32,000 nt of DNA from Candidatus Baldrarchaeota archaeon (GCA_019056805.1 DXJG01000005.1:1419-33418); one strand, 5' to 3'; positions 1 to 14,813 are shown, counted from the first letter of the stretch. A program made the numbers and translations. The notes: generated by a model from the letters alone, not told the origin.

Positions 1-1085
1 CAAAGATATGAAAGCTCATTTATAATGTCTTTTCCATTCTTTGAACGGCCTCCAAGTTCGAAGTGGAAAGATCGATATCCAGTGTGGTATTTTGCTGCGG
101 TGTGAGATTTTAGTGAATAGTTTAGCCATCCAAATTTAATAAATAGACATTCAAGTAGTTCTAGGGCATCTTCTTTTGTTAATCTCCCCTCTTCTATATC
201 TTTTTTGTAAAATGGATACATGTATTCGTCGAAGCGCCCTGTTGAATATCCAATTCCACCTTCCTCTATATAACTTGCAACAAAAACGAACCAAAATGAT
301 TGTAATGCTTCATGGAAATTTCTTGCGGGATTTGCTGACACCCAGCTACATATCTCGCTAATTTTTAATAGTTCTTCTTTTCGTTGAGGATCAGTTTCTT
401 TTTCAGCAAGTTCACGTGCTAGATTTGCATATCTTTTAGCCCAGTTGATTACAGCATCAATACATATCAGTGCTGCCTCATAGAACTGTTTGACTGCCTC
501 ATGTGGAACTTTTGCCAGTTTTTCTTTTATTTCTTCCTTTATTCCATTTAGTCCTTTATGAAGTACTTTTGGGTTAAATATGACGTGTCCTGGACCTGAG
601 CTAGCAAATGCACCTAAATTTGCTAGCTCAGTGTCCTTGGGAGGATATTCAAAGGGGTTCATGAAAAATACTTCTCTAATTGCTGGAGATAATCGATTAA
701 ACATAACTTCGTGTAGTGTTTTTCCTCGCCAATAGGGGAAAACCTTTTCTCTTAACACTTTTTTAGTTGTTTCATCTACTTCGGTTGGCTCATATTTCCT
801 TGTGGGAAGTTCATCTAATACTTTTTCTATCCAATGAGCAACATATTCAGGGTAAAGAGGCGTTCCAAGTGGCTCAGTTGTAGGGGAACCAACGATCAAT
901 TCACCATCATCAATTATGATCGGCATTTCTTCTAACACTTTTTTGAAAGCTTTTGCTCTTCTTATTATTTGGGGTTCCCCTTCGGTTTCTCTGTAACTTT
1001 CTGTCACTAACACAGCTCTTGTAGCATCAAGCTTAGGTTTAGCTGTCCAAACTTTCTCTACTAACTTTCTTACTCTATGTCGCAT
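1..1085 (-). CDS. Glycyl radical enzyme (PFL2/HypD/CutC-like superfamily), N-terminal ~361 aa, truncated by the window edge
   Basis: Hand translation from ATG at 1085 (SD AGGTGGTGA) is open to position 1: MRHRVRKLVEKVWTAKPKLDATRAVLVTESYRETEGEPQIIRRAKAFKKVLEEMPIIIDDGELIVG...NPARNFHEALQSFWF...STGRFDEYMYPFYKKDIEEGRLTKEDALELLECLFIK. These are typical GRE segments. Absent from the ORF track because no stop lies in the window. Confidence 0.92.
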   Translation of the reverse strand, partial: MRHRVRKLVEKVWTAKPKLDATRAVLVTESYRETEGEPQIIRRAKAFKKVLEEMPIIIDDGELIVGSPTTEPLGTPLYPEYVAHWIEKVLDELPTRKYEPTEVDETTKKVLREKVFPYWRGKTLHEVMFNRLSPAIREVFFMNPFEYPPKDTELANLGAFASSGPGHVIFNPKVLHKGLNGIKEEIKEKLAKVPHEAVKQFYEAALICIDAVINWAKRYANLARELAEKETDPQRKEELLKISEICSWVSANPARNFHEALQSFWFVFVASYIEEGGIGYSTGRFDEYMYPFYKKDIEEGRLTKEDALELLECLFIKFGWLNYSLKSHTAAKYHTGYRSFHFELGGRSKNGKDIINELSYL

Positions 1086-1110
1086 AATCACCACCTGGAA
1101 GACAACTAAG

Positions 1111-1120
1111 AAATATAAAT
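1111..1120 (-). promoter_or_regulatory. Putative TATA box of the glycyl radical enzyme gene
   Basis: Minus-strand TTTATATT about 25-30 nt upstream of the SD/ATG at 1085. Confidence 0.45.
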
Positions 1121-1467
1121 TATCGTTGTAAAAGTTAAAATTTTTCGACATGTCTAGATATAAAAAATCCGTCAATAAAGGATGACTAAGGACGTATGAT
1201 CGGGAGATTTTATTTTTAAAGTTAGTTTTTAAATTTGGGCTGTGGGATGATGTGTGATTTGAGGTTTTGTGTTGATTGGGATACGTTTAACCTGAAACAT
1301 GTTAATTATTGACGTAGACCCTAGGTTCGATGCATACTTTGCTCTAAAAATCCTAACTAGTACAAGTACACCTGACTGTGATCGTCAATTAGGAGGATTT
1401 TTAAATACAGCTACAAACTATGAGTCTTATAGGATTTTATCATATTGAAAAATGGAAAATAAAACAG

Positions 1468-2763
1468 TCATATGTCTTTTAGAACTTCTCTATAGCCTTC
1501 CATGTCAAAGAACCCGTTTCCCGACACGTTAAAAACTATGACTTTTTCTTTGTTTTCTCTTTTCGCTTTAAGTGCTTCGTCGATTGCTGCTTTTACTGCA
1601 TATGCTGATTCTAAAGCTACTAGGACTCCTTCTGTTTGCAAAAATATTTTTGCAGCTTCGAGTGCTTCTTTTTCATCCAAGGCTATAGCATCAATTATTC
1701 CTTCATGTCTTAACAGACTTAATGTTGGTGATGAACTACTGCTTCTAAGTCCTTCTGCCCTGATTAGTGGAAGTTTAGTTTCAACACCTAGCGTGTACAT
1801 TTTCATTAGGGGTAATGTTCTTGAGGGCTCTACGAAATCATAGCGATATTCTCCCTTAATTAGTGTAGGAGCTGCAGATGTTTGAACAACTAGAAACTTG
1901 ATATTTCCCAGTTTTCCATCTAAATAATCTTTTATGAACGGATACGCCAATCCAGGGAAATTGCTTCCAGTTCCGCCACATGAGAGAACAACATCTGGAC
2001 TTTTGTCAATAATTTCAAGTTGTTTCTTCGTTTCTAAACCAATAATGGTATGATGCATTATTACATGATTCATTCTACTACCCCAAATAGCAACAGTGTC
2101 ATCATTATTTAATGCAACCTCAAAAGTTTCAGCATATGCAGTGCCTAAACTTCCTGGATGCTCCGGGTTTTCTTCCAAATATTTCTTCCCTATTTTAGTT
2201 GTTTCACTTGGTGATTCAATTACCTTGGCATTAAGCATCCGAGTGTATGAAGCTCTCTCGCGCTTCATGCGACAAGCATGTCTAACCCAAAAAATGGTAC
2301 AATCGAGGCTAAACATTGCTGCAGCAAAAGCAACTGCACTTCCAACCTGACCCGCGCCGGTAGGTGCTACTACTCTTTTAAACCCCTCTTTATACGCGTA
2401 ATAAACCTGTGGAATCATCGAATTCATTTTAAAACTGCCAGTAGGTGCTAAATCTTCACGCTTATAATATATACGGGCAGGGGTATTTAGAAACTCTTCA
2501 AGTCTCTTAGCTCTGTATAAAGGCCTTGGCCTTCCTATATGAATGTATAATTCTCTAACCTTATCTGGTATCGATATCCATCTTTCCTTCGAAAATTCTA
2601 GTTCAAGTGATGTTTTTGTGAAAAGTTTTTTCATTAGTTCAACCCTTGACACTCCTTTTTCAGGTTCTTTGTAGGGTGGTAGAGGTTTTGGCAAATCTGG
2701 TAGAATATTATACCAGTGTTTTGGTAGCTCATCAACCGGAAGGAAAATATGATTGTTTTTCAA
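1468..2763 (-). CDS. TrpB2-like fold-type II PLP-dependent enzyme with a divergent active site
   Basis: TrpB2 backbone: ELPKHWYNILPDLP, ARIYYKRE..PTGSFKMN (PLP Lys), TGAGQVGSA, HPGSLG, GG(T)GSNF, YTLG, ESAYA, SGNG. Start reassigned to TTG 2763 (SD GGAGGG at 2777-2772) rather than 2820. Confidence 0.88.
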   Translation of the reverse strand: MKNNHIFLPVDELPKHWYNILPDLPKPLPPYKEPEKGVSRVELMKKLFTKTSLELEFSKERWISIPDKVRELYIHIGRPRPLYRAKRLEEFLNTPARIYYKREDLAPTGSFKMNSMIPQVYYAYKEGFKRVVAPTGAGQVGSAVAFAAAMFSLDCTIFWVRHACRMKRERASYTRMLNAKVIESPSETTKIGKKYLEENPEHPGSLGTAYAETFEVALNNDDTVAIWGSRMNHVIMHHTIIGLETKKQLEIIDKSPDVVLSCGGTGSNFPGLAYPFIKDYLDGKLGNIKFLVVQTSAAPTLIKGEYRYDFVEPSRTLPLMKMYTLGVETKLPLIRAEGLRSSSSSPTLSLLRHEGIIDAIALDEKEALEAAKIFLQTEGVLVALESAYAVKAAIDEALKAKRENKEKVIVFNVSGNGFFDMEGYREVLKDI

Positions 2764-2788
2764 CGTTACAGCCCTCCTATAAATTAGT

Positions 2789-3223
2789 TTAGGACATGAG
2801 TATTTTAACGCTATTGCCAATTTTTAAATTTAATTTACCTCCGGTACTCACTTCATCCGCCTTTAGAAGTAGAGTAATATGATTTGGGGCATGTGTTGTA
2901 TCGAAACCAGCAATTACACCGATAAGTCTATCACTAATGTATACTTCATCCCCAACAACAGCAACTCCCCCGTTTTTCACTTCCATGAAACCTATATAGC
3001 CAACATGATTCACAACTTTTCCGGGTGAAGCATCTTCTTCGTCGGTTATAGCAATTTCGCAAATAGAGTTCTTTGCAAGAGCCCTTGACATCGGGTCAAT
3101 CAGTTTCATACCTCTTTCATCTATTATAATGTCAAGAATTGCAACTATTTCCCCTAAAATTTCTCTTTTCGCTATATATGGACTCTTTTTAATTAATCCG
3201 GATTTGTATGGTTCTTTGCTCAT
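2789..3223 (-). CDS. Small conserved beta-rich hypothetical protein (resembles the DUF6917-type family recalled from anaerobic Firmicutes)
   Basis: 144 aa with SD GGATGTGA. Motifs GYIGFMEVKNGGVAVVGDEV and GVIAGFDTTHAPNH. The family name is from memory and was not searched. Confidence 0.7.
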   Translation of the reverse strand: MSKEPYKSGLIKKSPYIAKREILGEIVAILDIIIDERGMKLIDPMSRALAKNSICEIAITDEEDASPGKVVNHVGYIGFMEVKNGGVAVVGDEVYISDRLIGVIAGFDTTHAPNHITLLLKADEVSTGGKLNLKIGNSVKILMS

Positions 3224-3364
3224 TTCTCATCACATCCTGAGGTTAACTCGTCAAACCAAATAATTGAAATTTTATATATTATTAGATTTCATATTAACAA
3301 TTATAACACTTTTATTTCTGGTGAAACAATAATATTGTAATACATAAATATCAAGGTGAGAAGA

Positions 3365-3835
3365 ATGGCTGGTCAAGAGAGAAGGATATGTGTAGACCCA
3401 GATTTTTTCGACCTAGAAATATATGCAATATATTATGCGATTTACGACCTTGTTGGAGAAGATACATGGAAGGTTGTATGGAAAGCTGGTGAAATAGTAT
3501 ATAATGAGATAAAAGATAAGATTGGAGCTGCAGACGCAAAGGACCCCTTTGAATCGCTTAAAAAATTGGCAGAATGGTTGAAAAAGGTGGGCTATATAGA
3601 AGATATCGAGGTACGTAAAGTGGCAGAGGACGAAATAGAGTACGTTATGCTCAATCCTATAATTACTTCAGGAGCAAAGAGATTAATTCAAGAAGGCCGC
3701 GTTCCGGCGCATATTTCAACAGCTTTAATGTTTGCTGCGCTTAAACAATTTAATATGAAAGCAGAAATGGTAGGTGAACCTAAGTTTCTACCCGACGGCC
3801 GTGCTGTAGAGAGGTGGAAGTTGATCAAAATTTAA
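3365..3835 (+). CDS. V4R/H-NOX/Bet3-like small ligand-binding domain protein
   Basis: Pattern WKAGEIVY...LKKLAEWLKKVGY.EDIEV...EIEYVMLNP...ALMFAAL...ERWKL fits the V4R-like fold. Start moved to ATG 3365 (SD GGTGA 3355-3359). Confidence 0.62.
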   Translation: MAGQERRICVDPDFFDLEIYAIYYAIYDLVGEDTWKVVWKAGEIVYNEIKDKIGAADAKDPFESLKKLAEWLKKVGYIEDIEVRKVAEDEIEYVMLNPIITSGAKRLIQEGRVPAHISTALMFAALKQFNMKAEMVGEPKFLPDGRAVERWKLIKI

Positions 3836-3867
3836 GTAAAAAATAACTAATTGGGGAGGTGGATTCC

Positions 3868-5148
3868 TTGGTGGAAGTTGTAGTTGTTGGTGGAGGTTTT
3901 GGTGGTATTGGAGCAACTCTTGGCGCAATCAAAGCTGGCGCTAACGTAACTCTAATAGAGAGAACTGATATGTTGCTTGGAACAGGATTAGTTGGTGGGA
4001 TATTTCGGAACAATGGAAGATTTGTAGCCGCTGAAGAAGCTATCGCTATGGGAGCTGGCGAAATATTTGGGATAATGGATAGAATTGCTCGACATAAAAA
4101 CATCGAATTTCCGAGGCATAAACATGCAAGTTTATATGATGTGTACAAAATCGAGCCAGAAGTTAGGAAATTTTTGGAAAAAATCGGAGTAGAATTAAAG
4201 TTAGCAGCTAGAGTTAAGGATGTTGAAAAGGTCAATAACAGGATAGTTTCATTAAAATTAGATAATGGAGAAGAAATTAAGGGGAATGTTTTTGTAGATG
4301 CTACAGGAACTTCGGCTTTCCCTGGAAACTGTACAAGGTATGGTAATGGTTGTGCTATGTGTATTTTACGCTGCCATACATTTAAACCAAGGGTAAGTAT
4401 TACGGAGAAAGCTGGGGTTAAGGAATATTATAGGGTAAGGGCAGATGGAACCCCGGGATCTATGAGTGGATCTTGTAAGATTTTTAAGGAAACGCTATCA
4501 AAGGAAATAAGGCACGAACTAGATAAAAGAGGGGTAGCAATAATTCCATTACCTAAGGAAATGGTTGATGAACATAAGTTAAAAATTAAGGCTTGTGTAC
4601 AATATGCATATCCAGAATATATCGAAAACATTATATTACTGGATACAGGACCCGCTAAGCTTATGAGTTCTTACTTTCCACTGCATCTTCTCAGGAAAAT
4701 ACCTGGTTTTGAAGACGCTAGATACGAAGATCCTTTGGCTGGAGGAATGGGTAATTCAATAAGATTTATGGCAATGGCTCCTAGAGAAAACACGATGCAA
4801 GTTAAAGGCATTGGGAACCTCTTTGTGGCTGGAGAAAAGTCAGGTCCTCAGGTAGGGCACACGGAAGCTTTAACAACTGGTGTTTTGGCAGGTTATAATG
4901 CTGCATTAAAAGGAGCAGGAAAGGAATGTATAGAATTGCCTAGAAGCATAACAATAGGGGACTTTATAGCTTTTATAAATGAGGAGGTGCAGCGGGAAAC
5001 TCCTATACCAAGAGGTTATACTTATTCTGGTGGGGTATACTTTGAAAGAATGAAAAAATTAGACTTATACACTATCGATGTAAAAGAGATCCAGAAGAGA
5101 GTAGAAGAAGCTGGAGTTAGTGGTATATTTGAAAAACGAGTTATATAA
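3868..5148 (+). CDS. FAD-dependent oxidoreductase, GidA/TrmFO-like fold, uncharacterised Cys-rich subfamily
   Basis: Rossmann motif VVVVGGGFGGIGA, LIERTD, VFVDATG and C-terminal NLFVAGEKSG.VGHTEA..TG; internal CX6CX2CX3C. SD GGAGGTGG 3855-3862 favours TTG 3868 (or GTG 3871). Confidence 0.85.
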   Translation: MVEVVVVGGGFGGIGATLGAIKAGANVTLIERTDMLLGTGLVGGIFRNNGRFVAAEEAIAMGAGEIFGIMDRIARHKNIEFPRHKHASLYDVYKIEPEVRKFLEKIGVELKLAARVKDVEKVNNRIVSLKLDNGEEIKGNVFVDATGTSAFPGNCTRYGNGCAMCILRCHTFKPRVSITEKAGVKEYYRVRADGTPGSMSGSCKIFKETLSKEIRHELDKRGVAIIPLPKEMVDEHKLKIKACVQYAYPEYIENIILLDTGPAKLMSSYFPLHLLRKIPGFEDARYEDPLAGGMGNSIRFMAMAPRENTMQVKGIGNLFVAGEKSGPQVGHTEALTTGVLAGYNAALKGAGKECIELPRSITIGDFIAFINEEVQRETPIPRGYTYSGGVYFERMKKLDLYTIDVKEIQKRVEEAGVSGIFEKRVI

Positions 5149-5171
5149 TTCTTTTTTTATTACTACTTTTT
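5149..5171 (+). terminator. Oligo-T archaeal terminator after the flavoprotein gene
   Basis: TTCTTTTTTTATTACTACTTTTT immediately follows the TAA stop. Confidence 0.5.
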
Positions 5172-5310
5172 AATGTCTACAAGGTTTTAGACAGAGTTAA
5201 ATGAAAAATGTTTACAATTCCATCTTTATAATGTAAATAAAGACAATAACATTTATTAGTAAGAAGAAAAAAAGTAAAAAAAATACTACTAAAAGCTTGG
5301 GGTATGTAAA

Positions 5311-6627
5311 ATGTCTGGGGAAAGGGAGGAAAAAATACCTCAGACATTTTGGGAATACCTTAAAGCTTGGGGACCCGGTATTGCAGCGGTATTAACTTGG
5401 GCTGGAGCTGGAGATCTCGTTGATTGCGCCGCAGCTGGTGCTAGCTATGGTTATGCCCTCATGTGGGCTCTAACAATTGCTCTACTTCTAAGAGGAGTTA
5501 TAGTCTCTATAATGGCTAAATACGAACTTTGTAATCCCCACCGAGAAACCTTAATAGCAGCATACAAACGACTTGGAACCTGGGTTGCATGGATACTTAT
5601 TGTTGCTTTCTTCTTCTATGCCCACATATACGGTGCATTTCTTCTAAAAGGTTCAGGAGTTGGACTATGGTTACTAAGCGGAAAAGCTGGAGGAGAATGG
5701 GGACTATTTGCCTGGTGTGTAGTACTAATGATAGTTGCAGTCCTCATATGGGGACAATGGGGACAAGGCAAATACAAGTACATTGAATATCTGTTTAAAG
5801 TAACATTGGCCCTCATGACTATAACTTTCTTGGGAACAGCTGCAATTGCAATAGCAAGAAACCCCGCAGCCCTTGGAAAAATGATTCTTGGAGCAATAGC
5901 CGTCGGCTGGATTCCACCAGGAGTTGGACCTTGGGAAGCAAGTTTCATGGCAGTTGCAACTATTGGAGCAATTGGAGGTTCAATAGCGAACTTTCTCTAT
6001 CCATATTTCATAAAAGGTAAAGGATGGACCGATGAAAGATACATAAAGGTACAAAGATTTGATCTGTGGCTTGCTATAATTGTTGTTATAATTTTGGATG
6101 CAGCAATTTGGACCGTAGGAGCAGAAATACTACATCCACAAGGTATTCATGTTACCTCGGTAGAAGACATAGCCTATGCATTGGTTCATATCGTCGGAAC
6201 TGCCGGAGCAGTACTCGTATATGCAGGGTTATTCGTAACAGCTTATGATACATATATCGGTCTTGCTTGTGGTCTCTGTATGGGAGGTATCGACTCCATT
6301 CATCAAGTTATGCCAGAAAGAAAAGAGAAATACAAGAGTTACGAAAATGATCCATGGTACAGATATGCTATATACTATGCTTTGATAACGCCCATTATCT
6401 GGGCTTTACCAGGAATGCCAGGATTTATCTTCATGGTACTCTTCATGAATGCCCTCTCCGTCGTAATAATTCCAATAATTGCCATAGGACTTCTAATCAT
6501 AGCCAACAAAGCAGAGTTCATAGGCGAGAAATATAAGAACAAGTGGTGGGAAAACCTATTATTGATTGTTATAGTGGCAATCGCGCTCTGGAGTACCTAC
6601 CATTTAATAATGTCCTTCATTAAGTAG
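5311..6627 (+). CDS. NRAMP-family-like (YcsG-type) secondary transporter, ~11 TM, lacking the metal-binding motifs
   Basis: GPGIAAVLTWAGAGDL...GASYGYALMW matches the NRAMP-like TM1-2 pattern. DPGN and MPHN motifs are absent. Many hydrophobic segments. Confidence 0.82.
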   Translation: MSGEREEKIPQTFWEYLKAWGPGIAAVLTWAGAGDLVDCAAAGASYGYALMWALTIALLLRGVIVSIMAKYELCNPHRETLIAAYKRLGTWVAWILIVAFFFYAHIYGAFLLKGSGVGLWLLSGKAGGEWGLFAWCVVLMIVAVLIWGQWGQGKYKYIEYLFKVTLALMTITFLGTAAIAIARNPAALGKMILGAIAVGWIPPGVGPWEASFMAVATIGAIGGSIANFLYPYFIKGKGWTDERYIKVQRFDLWLAIIVVIILDAAIWTVGAEILHPQGIHVTSVEDIAYALVHIVGTAGAVLVYAGLFVTAYDTYIGLACGLCMGGIDSIHQVMPERKEKYKSYENDPWYRYAIYYALITPIIWALPGMPGFIFMVLFMNALSVVIIPIIAIGLLIIANKAEFIGEKYKNKWWENLLLIVIVAIALWSTYHLIMSFIK

Positions 6628-6802
6628 CCACAGAGACGTAGAAGTCTGAAATCCTAAAACCTATTTTTTACTTTAAGTTTGATATGACTCAGTTGATTAA
6701 ACGTTTATCTGCCACGTTTTTATTTTGTAATTATTATTTAGCAAAAACTCTTTTGTATAATTAATTATGAATAGCAAATAACATAAAAAGGTGAGTAAGA
6801 AA

Positions 6803-7723
6803 ATGTATAAAGTATTTGAAAGACATGATGTGAACCTTTTAGAGGGAGCTATTGACCTTCATGTACATTCTGCTCCGGACTTATTTGCTAGATCACTGGA
6901 TGCAATTGAATTAGCTAAACAAGCTACAACTGTAGGTATGCGTGCCATTGTCCTAAAATGTCACTTCTTTCCTACAGTATTTACGGCTTATTTTGTTAGA
7001 AAGGCCGTAGAAAATAGTATAGATGTTTTTGGAGGAATCGTGCTTAATCATTATGTTGGAGGATTTAATCCTCATGCAGTTGAAGCATCAATAAAAGCTG
7101 GTGGGAAAATAGTTTGGATGCCAACTATCTCCGCCACAAATCACATTCACCATTATAAAAGTTTGAATAGGGAAGAATGGGGACTAAAAAGTTTAAAGCT
7201 AAAAAGTAGAGGAATAGGATTATCGCCCATAAATAAAAAGGATGAAATTGCCCCGCAAGTGGAGGAAATTCTTAGCATAATAGCTGATACAAATACGATT
7301 CTCGCTACTGGTCATCTTTCTGTTCATGAAATTGAAATACTTGTAGAGGAAGCTAGAAATTTGGGAGTTAGAAAAATTCTTGTAAATCATCCAGCATTTA
7401 GAGTTGTAAATATGCCCGTTGAAAAACAAAAGGAACTGGCGAAGAGGGGAGCTTATATGGAACATGTTTTCTTACTTTTGACTCCGATGTGGTATACCAT
7501 GAATCCAAAGAACATGGTAAAAATGATAAAAGAAGTAGGAATTGACCATTCAATAATAGCCACCGATTTGGGACAAATACATAATCCTTCACCAATTGAA
7601 GGTTTAAGAACCTTTATACAAATACTTTTAGAAAACGGCTTAAAACCACACGAGGTAAGAACTTTAGTGGCTGAAAACCCAGCCAACCTACTTGATATTG
7701 AAATAAAGAAGAATGAAAATTAA
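6803..7723 (+). CDS. Metal-dependent TIM-barrel hydrolase, amidohydrolase superfamily (DUF6282-type)
   Basis: GAIDLHVHSAPD (HxH), VLKCH, ATGHLS, VNHP, ATDLGQ. Start ATG 6803 (SD GGTGAG 6790-6795). Confidence 0.82.
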   Translation: MYKVFERHDVNLLEGAIDLHVHSAPDLFARSLDAIELAKQATTVGMRAIVLKCHFFPTVFTAYFVRKAVENSIDVFGGIVLNHYVGGFNPHAVEASIKAGGKIVWMPTISATNHIHHYKSLNREEWGLKSLKLKSRGIGLSPINKKDEIAPQVEEILSIIADTNTILATGHLSVHEIEILVEEARNLGVRKILVNHPAFRVVNMPVEKQKELAKRGAYMEHVFLLLTPMWYTMNPKNMVKMIKEVGIDHSIIATDLGQIHNPSPIEGLRTFIQILLENGLKPHEVRTLVAENPANLLDIEIKKNEN

Positions 7724-7984
7724 CATTTTATGTATATCACTCTGTTCATTATGCAATAAAATATGCATGGTTATCATGATGTATGTTAGTTAATGAATAA
7801 AAACTGTTACAAAATCCATATTGTTTAATGATGAAGCTTTGGTTTACTCTGATAAATTACTGATTTGTCATAGTAAAAAACATTGCAAAACAGTTAATTT
7901 TTTATAAAATGTCGCTTGATATATTTTCGCCCAATAAAGAGTAGCTAGGTGTTGAAGTGTAAAAGTAAAGTGTGGTGAGGATTC

Positions 7985-8779
7985 TTGCCTACAATTATAG
8001 TGCCATTTAAGCAGATAGTTGATATTAAAGAGATTAAGGTGGATCCCAGTACCCAAACACCAATAACGGTTGGAATTCCAAGAAAGATAAGTGATGTAGA
8101 TAAAAATGCGTTAGAAGAAGCTATAAAAATAAAGGAAAAACATGGCGGGAAAATAATAGCTATCACTGTCGGTCCACCTGAAGCGAAAACAGCTCTTAGA
8201 GAAACATTAGCTATGGGTGTGGATGAAGCATATCTTCTAAGCGACCCTATATTTGAGGGCTCTGACACCCTGGCTACAGCACGTATATTAGCAAAGACTA
8301 TCGAGAAGCTAGGAGAATTTGACTTAATAATTTGTGGGGAAATGTCTCTTGACGGACTTGCGGCTCAAGTTGGTCCGAGGCTTGCAGAGCTTCTAGACGT
8401 ACCTCAGATAACTTATGTCAGAAAGGTTACCGTAGAGGGGGATAAGGTAATTGCTGAGAAGGATTTAGAAGAGGAGTATGAAATAGTGGAAGCTAAGATG
8501 CCGGTCCTTTTAACAGTGACACGAGAGATAAACGAACCCAGGATACCCTCGCTAAGAGATATTATGAAAGCATCAAGAAAAGAGATCAAAACATGGACAG
8601 CAAACGATATCGGAATATCAAAGGAAGACGTTGGATCTGAAGGATCAGCTGTACAGATACTTAAAGTTACAGTTCCAAAAGTGGAGAGAAAAGGCATTCT
8701 TGTAGAGGCTGAAACAGTTGAAGAAGCTGCAGAAGAAGTTGTAAAGATGATACTTAAGGAAGGAGTGTTAAGGAGGTAG
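7985..8779 (+). CDS. etfB: Electron transfer flavoprotein beta subunit
   Basis: VPFKQIVD, DKNALEEA, GPPEA..ALR..LAMG.DEAYLLSD, DG..AQVGP, PVLLTV..EINEPR.PSL. TTG start with SD GGTGAGG. Confidence 0.96.
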   Translation: MPTIIVPFKQIVDIKEIKVDPSTQTPITVGIPRKISDVDKNALEEAIKIKEKHGGKIIAITVGPPEAKTALRETLAMGVDEAYLLSDPIFEGSDTLATARILAKTIEKLGEFDLIICGEMSLDGLAAQVGPRLAELLDVPQITYVRKVTVEGDKVIAEKDLEEEYEIVEAKMPVLLTVTREINEPRIPSLRDIMKASRKEIKTWTANDIGISKEDVGSEGSAVQILKVTVPKVERKGILVEAETVEEAAEEVVKMILKEGVLRR

Positions 8780-8783
8780 TGTC

Positions 8784-9758
8784 ATGAGTTCCAACGAATT
8801 TAAAGGAGTTATGGTCTTTTCTGAAAATTTTGAAATTCTCCTAGAATTGCTAGGAAAGGGAAGGGAACTTGCTGACAAACTTCAAGTAGAACTATCAGCA
8901 GTTCTTATGGGACATAACATTGATGAAGAGCGTGGAAAAGACCTTATAAAACATGGAGCTGACAAAGTATACATAGTTGACAATCCTATTCTAGAACAAT
9001 TTAATGCAGAACCTTACGCAGACGTTCTTTCAAAAATAGCTAGTGAATATAAGCCGGAAATAATTTTAATCGGTGCTACAAAAAGAGGTAAAGAACTTGC
9101 GCCAAGAGTTGCCACAAAGTTGAATACAGGATGCATGACTGAATGTACAAAACTAGACATTGATGAGGAACGCCGATTAGTGGTAACTCGATTAGTATAT
9201 GGTGGTTCTTCTATAGCAACCGAATATTCTCGTGTAAAACCTCAGATAGCAACAGTTTCTCCACATACATTTGAAAAACTTGCACCTGAGGAGAGAAAGG
9301 GAGAAATAGTCAAATTTGAAGTCGAAGTAAAGGAGCCTAGAACTAAAGTCGTGGAAAGGAAAAAGAAGGAAATTGTCGGAGAAAGACTTGAAGAAGCTTC
9401 AGTGATTGTTGCAGGTGGAAGAGGAATAAGGAGTAAAGAAGATTTCAAGCTACTGGAAGAATTAGCAAAGGTTTTAAATGGACAAGTCGGATGTACAAGG
9501 CCTATTGCGGCAGACTATGGCTGGTTTACAAATTGGATTGGTATTTCTGGTGTTAAAATAAAACCAAAACTCTACATAGCGGTAGGTATTTCAGGAGCTA
9601 TCCAGCATACAGCAGGCATAATGGATTCAAAAATAATTGTAGCAATAAATAAGGATGAAGAGGCTCCAATATTCAAGGCAGCCGACTACGGAATAGTTGG
9701 AGATCTATACAAGATTGTACCTGCCCTTACAGAAGCTTTCAAAAAACTACTAAAATAA
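8784..9758 (+). CDS. etfA: Electron transfer flavoprotein alpha subunit
   Basis: [68 protein letters not shown]. Confidence 0.96.
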
Positions 9759-9766
9759 CGTCACAA

Positions 9767-9822
9767 TATATTTTCTTTTTGTTTTTGCTGTTTTTAAAAG
9801 AATAGATAAAAATAGAAAAAGG
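9767..9822. terminator. Bidirectional T-rich/A-rich terminator between convergent etfA and acyl-CoA dehydrogenase
   Basis: Plus-strand TTTTCTTTTGTTTTTGCTGTTTTT is followed by A-rich AAAATAGAAAAA, which is a T-run on the minus strand. Confidence 0.5.
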
Positions 9823-9825
9823 GAT

Positions 9826-11031
9826 TTACTTGTAGGGCACGTAGTCTCTCCCGAGCAGTTCTCTTGCTATGATTATTCTTTGAATGTTTAATCCTCCTTC
9901 GGCCCCAACGCAGTATGACATTATTCCTCTGAGTCCCATTTCAAGTGGGCATTCTTTTGTATATCCATAGGCGCCAAGCCATATCATTGCTTTCTCGAAT
10001 GCTTCGAATGCGAGAGAAGGCCCTAGTAATTTAACTGCTGATATGAATTTTGAAACTTCAAGGGGACCAAAACGTCCAGTAGCATATTTTTCATTGACCA
10101 TCCAAGCTGCCCTGTATACGAGTGATTTAAGTGCCTCGTTTAAGGCCCATATATCTGCCATTTCAAATTGTATTCCTTCGAATTTCGCAAGAGGCCTTCC
10201 GAATAATATGCGTTGCTTTGTGTATTCCATTCCAATTTCAAGAGCACGTCGAGTTGCTCCTACAGCAGTTGCACCGATGAGGAGCCTAGCTAGGTCAAAT
10301 CCTTCCATTGTATAGTAAAATCCTTTGTTTACTTCTCCGAGCACATATTCATCTGGTAATCTTACATCATTCATTACAAAACCGCCGGTAGATATAGCCA
10401 TTCTGCCCATATCTTCAAATCGTTTTGTAACTTCAACTCCTGGAGCGTCAATAGGTAAGAAGAATGCTGTCATACCTCTGTGACCAAGTTTAGGATCTGT
10501 TCTTGCAATAATAAAGTATCCTCCTCCTAGTTTCTTTGCTTCCTCGGTACCACTTATGTATATTTTTTCACCATTGATTACCCATTCGTCGCCTTCTTTC
10601 TTGGCGGTTGTTTTAACTGATGCTATGTCGGAGCCTCCTCCGGGTTCTGTGGTTGCTATTCCAACAAATGCCTCTCCTCTTACTGCTTTTTTGATATATT
10701 TTTCTCTAACTTCCTCGGAACAATATCTGTCAACGACATATCCCCATGAAGCTTCAACTAGGAAGAATACTGGAACTGCTATACTAATATCTGCATATCC
10801 TAATTCCTCTGCAGCTATGCATGCGGTTACCCAGTCAGCTCCAGTTCCACCATGTTCTTCGGGAATTGTCAATAAAAGTAATCCTAGGTCTGCTAGACCC
10901 TTGATAACGTCCATGGGCATTTCTTCTTTTGTGTCCATTTCTCTAACTTTTTCTAAACTTAAATTTTTTTCACACCATTCCTTAACGGCTTGTCTAAATA
11001 ATTCTTGCTCCTCTGTGAAAGAGAAATCCAT
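9826..11031 (-). CDS. Acyl-CoA dehydrogenase
   Basis: MDFSFTEEQELFRQAV, TEPGGGSD, WVINGEKIYIS, GFYYTMEGFDLAR, FGRPLAKFEGIQF, GAYGY, catalytic GAEG...QR.IIAR. Start ATG 11031 (SD GGGGAGG). Confidence 0.95.
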   Translation of the reverse strand: MDFSFTEEQELFRQAVKEWCEKNLSLEKVREMDTKEEMPMDVIKGLADLGLLLLTIPEEHGGTGADWVTACIAAEELGYADISIAVPVFFLVEASWGYVVDRYCSEEVREKYIKKAVRGEAFVGIATTEPGGGSDIASVKTTAKKEGDEWVINGEKIYISGTEEAKKLGGGYFIIARTDPKLGHRGMTAFFLPIDAPGVEVTKRFEDMGRMAISTGGFVMNDVRLPDEYVLGEVNKGFYYTMEGFDLARLLIGATAVGATRRALEIGMEYTKQRILFGRPLAKFEGIQFEMADIWALNEALKSLVYRAAWMVNEKYATGRFGPLEVSKFISAVKLLGPSLAFEAFEKAMIWLGAYGYTKECPLEMGLRGIMSYCVGAEGGLNIQRIIIARELLGRDYVPYK

Positions 11032-11432
11032 AATAAAACCTCCCCAAATTTTAATACTAATTGCTATAGCTAACTTACTCATCTGGTCATAAAAAATTTA
11101 CTAATTTCCCTTTTCCAATGAAACCTATACATAAATCAATGCCAACACGGTTAAGAAAATGTATCGAAATACCTTGCGTAAATTATTTCAATGCCGCTAT
11201 ATTAACATTTGATTTGAAAGTAGAACCTAAATAGCGACAAAATATAGATTTATAATAACGAAATTAACAATACTGTCGGGAAAACGTCAGTAAAATTATT
11301 AAAAACATCTTAACTAGTAATTTATATGAAGTTTTACAACAGAAGTTTAAAGTCAAGTTTTACATACATAATTCAATCTGAAAAGTTTAAGTATGATAAA
11401 TAATTTATTGAAATCGAATTCTCCGATGCTCT

Positions 11433-11561
11433 GCGGGGGTGGCCGAGCCAGGTCAAAGGTTGCTAAAGGCCGATTAAAGGCGCAGGACTGAGGCACCCTC
11501 TTTTAGGGCTCGAATCCTGTGGCGCAGGCCTGCGTGGGTTCAAATCCCACCCCCCGCACCA
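11433..11561 (+). tRNA. tRNA-Leu(GAG) with two introns (D-arm 21/22 at ~11457-11477; anticodon loop 37/38 or 38/39, 20 nt, ~11494-11514)
   Basis: Acceptor GCGGGGG/CCCCCGC, A73, encoded CCA, T-arm GTGGG-TTCAAAT-CCCAC and a long variable arm. Removing 21 nt and 20 nt restores D-arm GCC...GGC and anticodon stem CAGGA/TCCTG around CT-GAG-G. BHB-like pairings are found at both junctions. Confidence 0.93.
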
Positions 11562-14697: not shown

Positions 14698-14813
14698 TGG
14701 AGCCGCCGGCGGGATTTGAACCCGCGACCACCGGATTTCTCGCTTTCGTTACGCATTAAAGTTACGAGTCCGGCGCATTCGGCTATTTTTTCTACCAGCT
14801 GTGCTACGGCGGC
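14698..14813 (-). tRNA. tRNA-Thr(CGT) with two introns (D-arm 22/23, 14 nt, 14791-14778; canonical 37/38, 26 nt, 14762-14737)
   Basis: Acceptor GCCGCCG/CGGCGGC, U73, CCA. The anticodon intron has a perfect BHB (CTCG/CGAG helix, inner CTTT/AAAG). The D intron has helix TGGT/GCCG with 3-nt bulges. Confidence 0.95.

Follow-up and report, generated by a model that had tools for sequence, protein, structure and literature searches.

The first 7,723 positions of a 32,000-nucleotide stretch (the window) from the genome of a Candidatus Baldrarchaeota archaeon (GCA_019056805.1 DXJG01000005.1:1419-33418), together with an activase gene just outside it, constitute an accessory island of about 10 kb between backbone genes of this Asgard archaeon. 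The island holds eight genes, encoding a radical S-adenosylmethionine (radical-SAM) activase, a glycyl radical enzyme (GRE), a TrpB2-like enzyme of the pyridoxal phosphate (PLP) type, a DUF6917 protein, the V4R-fold protein p159, a cysteine-rich GidA-like flavoprotein, an Nramp-like permease and a DUF6282 protein. To judge from gene neighbourhoods in other genomes, two separately conserved modules are joined here. Module A consists of the Nramp-like permease, the PLP enzyme, the Cys-rich GidA-fold flavoprotein and DUF6917 with its V4R-fold partner, module B of the GRE, a member of a rare clade, and its radical-SAM activase. We put at about one half the probability that the island serves as a single catabolic pathway for an amino-acid-like compound, mainly because DUF6917 recurs with both modules and, on the GRE strand, overlaps or closely precedes the TrpB2-like gene. 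A first-pass annotation of the window had proposed that the genes serve the anaerobic breakdown of an amino-acid-like solute taken up from outside; this is plausible, but not in the form of one ten-gene pathway.

ORF calling and domain searches found all ten contiguous open reading frames (ORFs) of that annotation in place, with the families it had named. They are listed here together with the border of the island:

1..1085, minus strand: GRE, with its N-terminal 361 residues in the window (PF02901, 359 bits); the whole 791-residue gene is L001:128-2503(-).
1468..2820, minus strand: TrpB2-like PLP enzyme (TIGR01415), true start likely near 2763; third paralogue of the genome.
2789..3223, minus strand: DUF6917 beta-barrel protein (PF21891, 141.6 bits against a cut-off of 27); the gene linking the two modules.
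3356..3835, plus strand: p159, a 159-residue protein of V4R/Bet3/H-NOX fold, divergent from DUF6917.
3859..5148, plus strand: GidA/TrmFO-fold flavoprotein of 429 residues (PF01134, 98 bits) with six invariant cysteines.
5311..6627, plus strand: Nramp-family permease (PF01566, 94.5 bits against 29.8; NF037982, 64.4 against 50).
6791..7723, plus strand: DUF6282 protein (PF19799, 245.9 bits against 26.8); last gene of the island.
7724..7984, no strand: right border of the island, an intergenic stretch before ETF-beta; in the same-genus genomes G006 and G007 ETF-beta abuts a homologue of C17:732-2117.
7985..9758, plus strand: electron transfer flavoprotein (ETF) beta and alpha subunits, backbone genes outside the island, with ETF and ETF_alpha domains found.
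9826..11082, minus strand: acyl-coenzyme A (acyl-CoA) dehydrogenase (ACAD), backbone, with all three ACAD domains found; two congeners without the island have it at 92% identity.

The window lies on contig C13 of a 1.9-Mb archaeal genome that is 91% complete, and the contig begins 1418 bases to the left of the window. From 17.7 kb on, the window carries archaeal housekeeping genes (P0/P1/L1/L11, Spt5, FtsZ, prefoldin, eIF6, Nep1). In G006 and G007 the genes for ACAD, ETF-alpha and ETF-beta are kept in this order at 86–92% identity; the homologue of C17:732-2117 comes next, within about 240 bp, and after it more C17 genes in matching order. These congener genomes are 82–91% complete, and the junction between ETF-beta and the C17 homologue is itself assembled in both. 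No copy of the island was found in the congener genomes with GRE, DUF6917, flavoprotein and DUF6282 queries, and the TrpB-like, p159 and Nramp-like proteins, looked for only in the loci beside ETF/ACAD, had no match there. The stretch of about 10 kb from the activase to DUF6282 thus sits precisely at the junction of ETF-beta with the C17 gene, where it was inserted or has been retained. Since ETF and ACAD are kept in the same arrangement in congeners without the island, they belong to the backbone and are not island members.

On the left side, a metagenome contig of a relative (L014, about 88% DNA identity, GRE 96% identical) has the activase gene complete and, behind it, a gene matching C17:714-1190; for the C-terminus of its activase, the opening 354 bases of C17 give a better match than the start of C18. 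As L014 bridges the left end of C13 to C17, both contigs are neighbours in the genome with about 0.5 kb unassembled between them. A second contig, L123, contains seven of the island genes in unchanged order at 84–96% identity, so that the block is intact there; it is partial in L014 and L124. The whole island was seen only in such near-identical metagenome contigs, and its genes are single-copy in the genome with the exception of the TrpB2 paralogues. A search for direct repeats at the borders gave none above 9 nt with exact matching or above 12 nt with a single mismatch. The non-coding gap that separates the TrpB2-like gene from the GRE gene (window 1086-1467) is unusually long. No riboswitch or other Rfam family was found at E 0.1 in this or the other intergenic gaps; the search returned only a tRNA at window 14701-14813(-), a weak, below-threshold match to the tmRNA model at 11433-11561, which is probably an intron-bearing tRNA, and a chance match to an intron model.

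The only gene that we met elsewhere with both modules is DUF6917, which in the window is overlapped or closely trailed by the TrpB2-like gene on the GRE strand. Its predicted model is an all-beta barrel with a predicted local distance difference test (pLDDT) score of 95.7, and 14 polar or glycine residues, including a GFDxTHxPNH block, are invariant across 26 members. The model has no convincing solved relative (Foldseek E > 0.1; best VIA-align Z 4.4, to barrels resembling EF-Tu domain 2 or PTS-IIA). The family is small, with only 369 clusters among 1.84 billion representatives in a profile search, and in some proteins it is fused to RidA, to Gfo/Idh/MocA dehydrogenases, to an M20 amidohydrolase, to a methyltransferase or to DUF1805. 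In ten other Asgard genomes DUF6917 occurs without any island gene within about 10 kb; the sole neighbourhood of this kind that is annotated (G386, L029) has it among the genes of a peptide ABC operon of Opp/Dpp type, which also contains C45 and M19 peptidases, PrpD and AstE-like genes. A literature search on DUF6917, PF21891, DUF6282 and PF19799 returned no papers.

The divergent neighbour p159 has no Pfam match at E 0.01, and the V4R sequence model (PF02830) in particular is not matched. Its structure model (pLDDT 73, built from 3 sequences) does however match Bet3/TRAPP and H-NOX structures, with Foldseek E-values of 6e-5 to 7e-4, probability 1.00 and template-modelling scores of 0.5-0.65, and a language-model search also leads to V4R/TRAPP-like families. 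The earlier assignment to V4R without the cysteines therefore stands at the level of the fold, through the Bet3/H-NOX match, but not as a Pfam match. A RidA-like protein that takes the same position in bacterial operons was tried as a counterpart of p159 and rejected (hmmsearch E 0.09). The partnership with DUF6917 is seen on a metagenome contig at L137:8530-9510(-), where a single ORF of 326 residues is a fusion of DUF6917 (75% identity) with p159 (76%), and in the Asgard genome G397, in which the divergent p159/DUF6917 pair is kept next to a PLP enzyme and an M19 dipeptidase. The same genome carries at L028:3076-3723(-) an ORF matching the Hcp family of type VI secretion (PF05638, 132 bits).

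The flavoprotein of module A carries six cysteines that are invariant in 79 homologues, a Cx6Cx2Cx3C motif at residues 158-172 plus C206 and C246, and is probably an iron-sulfur (Fe-S) flavoenzyme. The view that it has a GidA fold without the tRNA domain was borne out, as its 429 residues reach only 36.7 bits on TIGR00136 against a cut-off of 524.85 and match residues 251-384 only of MnmG structures of about 640 residues, the C-terminal domain being absent. At least 483 relatives with 53–65% identity exist in a collection of species genomes, spread over Bathyarchaeia, Clostridia, Chloroflexota, Synergistaceae, spirochaetes and deltaproteobacteria. In 32 of the 80 best loci the flavoprotein gene is preceded on its own strand by DUF6917, at a distance of 0.9-3.3 kb. 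By clustering of neighbours, the recurrent bacterial order is an FCD regulator, DUF6917, a Rid-family protein, a 488-residue SelA/DgaE-like PLP enzyme, the flavoprotein and a 462-residue permease with 11-14 transmembrane segments. At L137 the flavoprotein gene (65% identity) is followed by an Nramp-like gene (59%), and the ORF with the DUF6917-p159 fusion is convergent to this pair.

A few further neighbours of the flavoprotein family were observed. A ThiS gene adjoins the flavoprotein in L137. Behind the bacterial cassette there is often a 606-residue protein that begins with a B12-binding domain and is unassigned over the remainder, together with a KamB-like reactivase (241 bits against 210; L044:11647-14611, L049:6175-9081), which suggests an undescribed, putatively B12-dependent mutase. 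In some bacteria the flavoprotein is present a second time, immediately behind a PyrK-like protein that binds flavin adenine dinucleotide (FAD) and NAD, of the sulfide/dihydroorotate dehydrogenase type (NF004470, 358 bits; L049:9162-11454, L103:9034-11281), suggesting that members of the family may receive electrons from NAD(P)H.

Module B is defined by the GRE. Its C-terminal glycyl loop RVSGY (LLVRVSGYCAYF in the full ORF) agrees with the RVxG motif, and PF01228 is present in all close homologues. The annotation had advised to inspect the left flank for a GRE-activating radical SAM enzyme, and the activase gene indeed starts 83 bp after the GRE stop; it is truncated by the contig end and complete in L014. 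The best structure matches are CutC (9f3w, 629 bits) and glycerol dehydratase (1r8w, 563 bits), with only 133 bits to PFL, and the N-terminal part scores 295 bits on the model of sulfopropanediol dehydratase against 302 bits on the general PFL2 model. The Cys loop reads S-F-C-G-C-D-T-P, with the catalytic Cys aligned to Cys433 of glycerol dehydratase in the G-C..P frame. In the alignment with 1r8w, Glu435 is replaced by Thr, Asp447 by Tyr and Ser282 by Gly, and His164 is kept. A recent review from 2026 classifies GREs by their Cys-loop chemistry and states that C-x-E, with Glu as the general base, is kept in every characterised GRE eliminase or isomerase and that, among GREs other than ribonucleotide reductases, two Cys on the loop are found only in PFL and TdcE (PMC13450708). 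Among 120 aligned homologues the C-[GA]-C-x-T-P loop is restricted to the query and P0001-P0006 (54–96% identity), the other 114 having G-C-V-E in 112 cases and G-C-P-A in two (P0007 and P0008, which thus also lack the Glu). The clade is rare; it comprises seven clusters including the query, all with C-[VD]-T where C-x-E is expected. With its C-x-C-x-T-P loop it fits neither the eliminase nor the PFL/TdcE description and falls into no described GRE class.

Genes of this clade are always accompanied by an activase where the contig permits. For P0002, P0003 and P0004 the arrangement is TctC-TctB-TctA-GRE-activase, the P0006 gene follows a GntR/FCD regulator and the P0005 gene follows an FSA aldolase and a PfkB kinase. 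The cluster of P0004 contains in addition DUF6917, RidA, an enolase-superfamily enzyme, PrpD, a class V aminotransferase and an Asp/Glu racemase; DUF6917 is found within the GRE cluster in L012 and L013. Two further observations concern GRE-related sequences. A second, diverged GRE activase is split over the contig ends C14:31965-32050 and C18:1-319 (about 80% DNA identity to the L014 activase); a second GRE as its client was considered and rejected, there being only one PFL-like gene in this 91%-complete genome. At L137:2400-2501(+), about 3 kb from the flavoprotein gene, 34 codons are 56% identical to the N-terminus of the window GRE, after which the frame decays into stop codons; a GRE gene may once have stood here and been deleted except for this remnant.

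The TrpB2-like enzyme scores borderline on TIGR01415 (518.9 bits against a cut-off of 518.85) and well on NF009057 (519.8 against 366). Alignment with 6hul_B and 4qys_B supports the earlier claim of a TrpB2 without its catalytic Glu, as PTGAGQVG stands for ETGAGQWG and GSFK for GSHK, so that the indole-activating Glu (Glu109 in Salmonella numbering) is Pro and the His before the PLP Lys is Phe; the PLP-binding Lys is kept, and the motifs GTGSN, GLRSSS and SGNG are present. Two further TrpB2 paralogues of the genome both have canonical motifs (ETGAGQWG), and the window gene is therefore a re-specialised third copy. GSFK marks a distinct subclade among 120 TrpB2-like homologues. Most of its members keep the Glu, which is lost, to P, C or Y, in only four clusters, among them that of the query (P), P0122 (C) and P0126 (Y). 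In Heimdall- and Bathyarchaeia-labelled genomes, GSFK-type genes adjoin a PF03601 transporter, a ComB-like 2-phosphosulfolactate phosphatase and a ComC-type Ldh_2 (L120:6829-10516, L121 and L122:8001-11354), and these neighbours hint at a possible sulfonate chemistry for the subclade.

The permease, too, has lost the diagnostic residues of its family, as had been noted: DPGN of transmembrane segment 1 is replaced by G-A-G-D-x-V-D, and A-x-x-M-P-H of segment 6 by G-A-I-G-G-S-I-A-N. The replacements (G-A-G-D-x-V-D and G-A-[IV]-[GA]-G-S-x-x-N) are conserved throughout a subfamily of 49 clusters. The 462-residue bacterial permease was examined as a relative of the Nramp-like protein and rejected (hhalign probability 0.1). 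DUF6282 is a candidate hydrolase of the amidohydrolase superfamily, a weak lead that comes from its nearest named atlas clusters, each of them TatD, PTE or Amidohydro, though the score is just 0.82; no PDB sequence matched at E 1. A metagenome scan gave only four DUF6282 loci, two of them the same island, and other neighbours are found in L125 and in genome G008, where a homologue with 72% identity lies in another gene context. Several of these proteins are thus members of families that are either uncharacterised or re-specialised, as the first-pass annotation had held.

The gene content, the residue changes, the boundaries of the island and the patterns of co-occurrence and fusion described above are compatible with a pathway in which all eight genes would serve one substrate, presumably of the amino-acid class, in roughly the following order. 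An amino-acid-like carboxylate would be taken up and, if it is an amide or lactam, could be opened by the DUF6282 hydrolase. The TrpB2-like enzyme, which would be incapable of indole activation, might then carry out a beta-elimination or beta-replacement, followed by a redox step of the flavoprotein. Finally, the GRE would perform an oxygen-sensitive radical cleavage, in this case without the Glu general base of all characterised eliminases and isomerases. In the best-supported picture, the TrpB2-like enzyme would stand in for the SelA-like lyase of the bacterial cassette and the Nramp-like protein for the usual permease, with the DUF6282 hydrolase as an extra component.

Several observations weigh against a single pathway. 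The two modules occur together in no locus outside near-identical relatives, and GRE, TrpB2-like, Nramp-like and DUF6282 genes are found in none of the 80 best flavoprotein loci. The GRE clade is mostly associated with TctABC, or once with FSA and PfkB, without the flavoprotein. Relatives of the TrpB2-like enzyme adjoin unrelated genes (S-Me-THD; DHDPS; the PF03601 transporter with ComB-like and Ldh_2 genes). DUF6282 at 72% identity is found elsewhere with genes of the Amdase/racemase family and with D-glutamate-cyclase-like, hydantoinase A/B, class IV aminotransferase and fumarase genes, a context of hydantoinase and racemase genes which would fit an amide or lactam hydrolase in a different pathway. 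The island is also divided into several transcription units, with a gap of about 380 bp between the TrpB2-like gene and the GRE and of 160-260 bp on the plus strand. The co-occurrence expected by the annotation therefore holds in part: DUF6917, the V4R-fold protein, the flavoprotein and the permease are linked, and the GRE clade is linked with its activase and once with DUF6917, but the TrpB2-like and DUF6282 genes keep unrelated neighbours and the whole set occurs only in near-identical relatives.

These points mean that the island can be a mosaic of unrelated cargo, in which the eight genes, whether they came in together or accumulated at a variable site, serve two or more unrelated substrates. 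The substrate of the GRE and its activase could, for example, be a carboxylate or a sugar derivative. An amino-acid derivative could be handled by the set of DUF6917, p159, flavoprotein and permease, and a lactam or hydantoin by DUF6282, with the TrpB2-like enzyme in a role of its own. That every part has different partners elsewhere, that there are several transcription units and that the best matches are of mixed source (Bathyarchaeia, other Asgard genomes, unassigned metagenome contigs) speaks for such a mosaic. It is harder to reconcile with the position of DUF6917, which recurs with both modules and is overlapped or closely trailed by the TrpB2-like gene on the GRE strand, or with the retention of the block in the contigs of relatives, intact in L123 and in part in L014 and L124. 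The 34-residue GRE remnant 3 kb from the flavoprotein in L137 likewise counts against a mosaic and is a weak hint in favour of one pathway. We consider a mosaic possible but rather doubtful.

An organosulfur or sulfonate metabolism appears improbable to us. Here the addition or removal of sulfur or sulfonate at C-beta would fall to the GSFK-type TrpB2-like enzyme, as with cysteate synthase or cysteate lyase, while C-S cleavage would be the task of the GRE and the handling of sulfur that of the six-Cys flavoprotein. This agrees with the ComB-like, Ldh_2 and PF03601 neighbours of GSFK-clade relatives, the nearly equal scores of the GRE N-terminus on the sulfopropanediol dehydratase and PFL2 models and the ThiS gene beside the flavoprotein in L137. 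However, all known C-S-cleaving GREs keep C-x-E (PMC13450708) where this one has C-x-T, and the island contains no sulfite reductase or sulfonate gene. Very improbable is the full ten-gene pathway, in which an acyl-CoA product would be oxidised by ETF and ACAD. The genes are adjacent in the window, and the models nearest to the ACAD are acryloyl-CoA reductase and glutaryl-CoA dehydrogenase, both of them far under cut-off; ETF and ACAD have a complete domain architecture, yet reach no equivalog cut-off of the family hidden Markov models. Against this stand the same ETF/ACAD arrangement in the island-less congeners, the end of L123 before these genes and their absence from L137, and the lack of a CoA-transferase, CoA-ligase or aldehyde dehydrogenase in the island to make an acyl-CoA. 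The proposed feeding into acyl-CoA oxidation thus finds no comparative support. The genome has a second ACAD-ETF set on C9.

The single catabolic pathway remains our preferred explanation. The superfamilies of the island are all known; the undescribed variants are the loop of the GRE clade, the TrpB2-like enzyme without Glu, the Nramp subfamily without the motifs and the cassette of DUF6917 and flavoprotein. Tentatively, the C-x-C-x-T-P clade might constitute a new mechanistic class of GREs, with no Glu base and a second loop Cys, acting on an amino-acid-derived carboxylate, and DUF6917 with its V4R-fold partner might at the same time be a new catalytic or substrate-handling component that couples PLP/imine chemistry to the six-Cys Fe-S flavoprotein in a widespread and entirely uncharacterised anaerobic pathway, which is joined here to a GRE. 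With a C-x-C loop and no C-x-E, in the sequence neighbourhood of the eliminases, the clade offers the search for new radical chemistry a defined target. The cassette of DUF6917, flavoprotein, PLP enzyme and permease is present in the genomes of at least 483 species, whose range takes in Clostridia, Chloroflexota and Bathyarchaeia; culturable carriers of its bacterial form include Thermosediminibacter, Heliorestis, Fervidicola and Geosporobacter. We found no paper that mentions the cassette, and the Asgard island and the DUF6917-V4R fusion are concrete handles on it. The case also shows that neighbouring ETF/ACAD genes should not enter such pathways without synteny controls.

Compared with known systems, the GRE resembles the 1,2-eliminases and isomerases (CutC, glycerol/propanediol dehydratase, HypD, IslA, HplG, PflD/YbiW) in length, RVxG loop, frame of the catalytic Cys, the His aligned with His164 of glycerol dehydratase and the dedicated activase downstream, and differs from them by the Thr in place of the C-x-E Glu and by an extra Cys two residues before the catalytic one. 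With PFL and TdcE it shares two loop Cys, but the pair is adjacent in PFL (C418, C419) and C-x-C here, and the similarity is low (133 bits). The TrpB2-like enzyme is about 50% identical over its full length (420 bits) to Sulfolobus TrpB2a/TrpB2b (PDB 6hul, 4qys) and shares the PLP Lys, the GAGQ loop and the fold-type II frame, whereas Glu is changed to Pro, His to Phe and GGLRYHG to EGLRSSS. The permease passes the Pfam threshold for Nramp/NRMT divalent-cation transporters, but its best structure, the Mg transporter NRMT 7qia, is matched at E 5.5e-6 only and the canonical metal-binding motifs are absent in a register that comes from this weak HMMER alignment. With MnmG/GidA and TrmFO the flavoprotein has in common the FAD-binding N-terminus and the C-terminal block of the catalytic domain (2zxh, E 3e-9, in addition to the PF01134 match); it differs in lacking the tRNA-binding C-terminal domain, in scores far under the family cut-offs, in the inserted six-Cys cluster and in its metabolic context. 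With the uncharacterised bacterial DUF6917/RidA/SelA-DgaE-like/flavoprotein/permease operon the island shares the DUF6917 and flavoprotein families (41–65% identity) and also the logic of a PLP enzyme and a permease, whereas in the window a fold-type II TrpB2-like enzyme replaces the SelA-like one, an Nramp-like protein replaces the 462-residue permease, RidA is absent, and a V4R-fold protein and a GRE are added.

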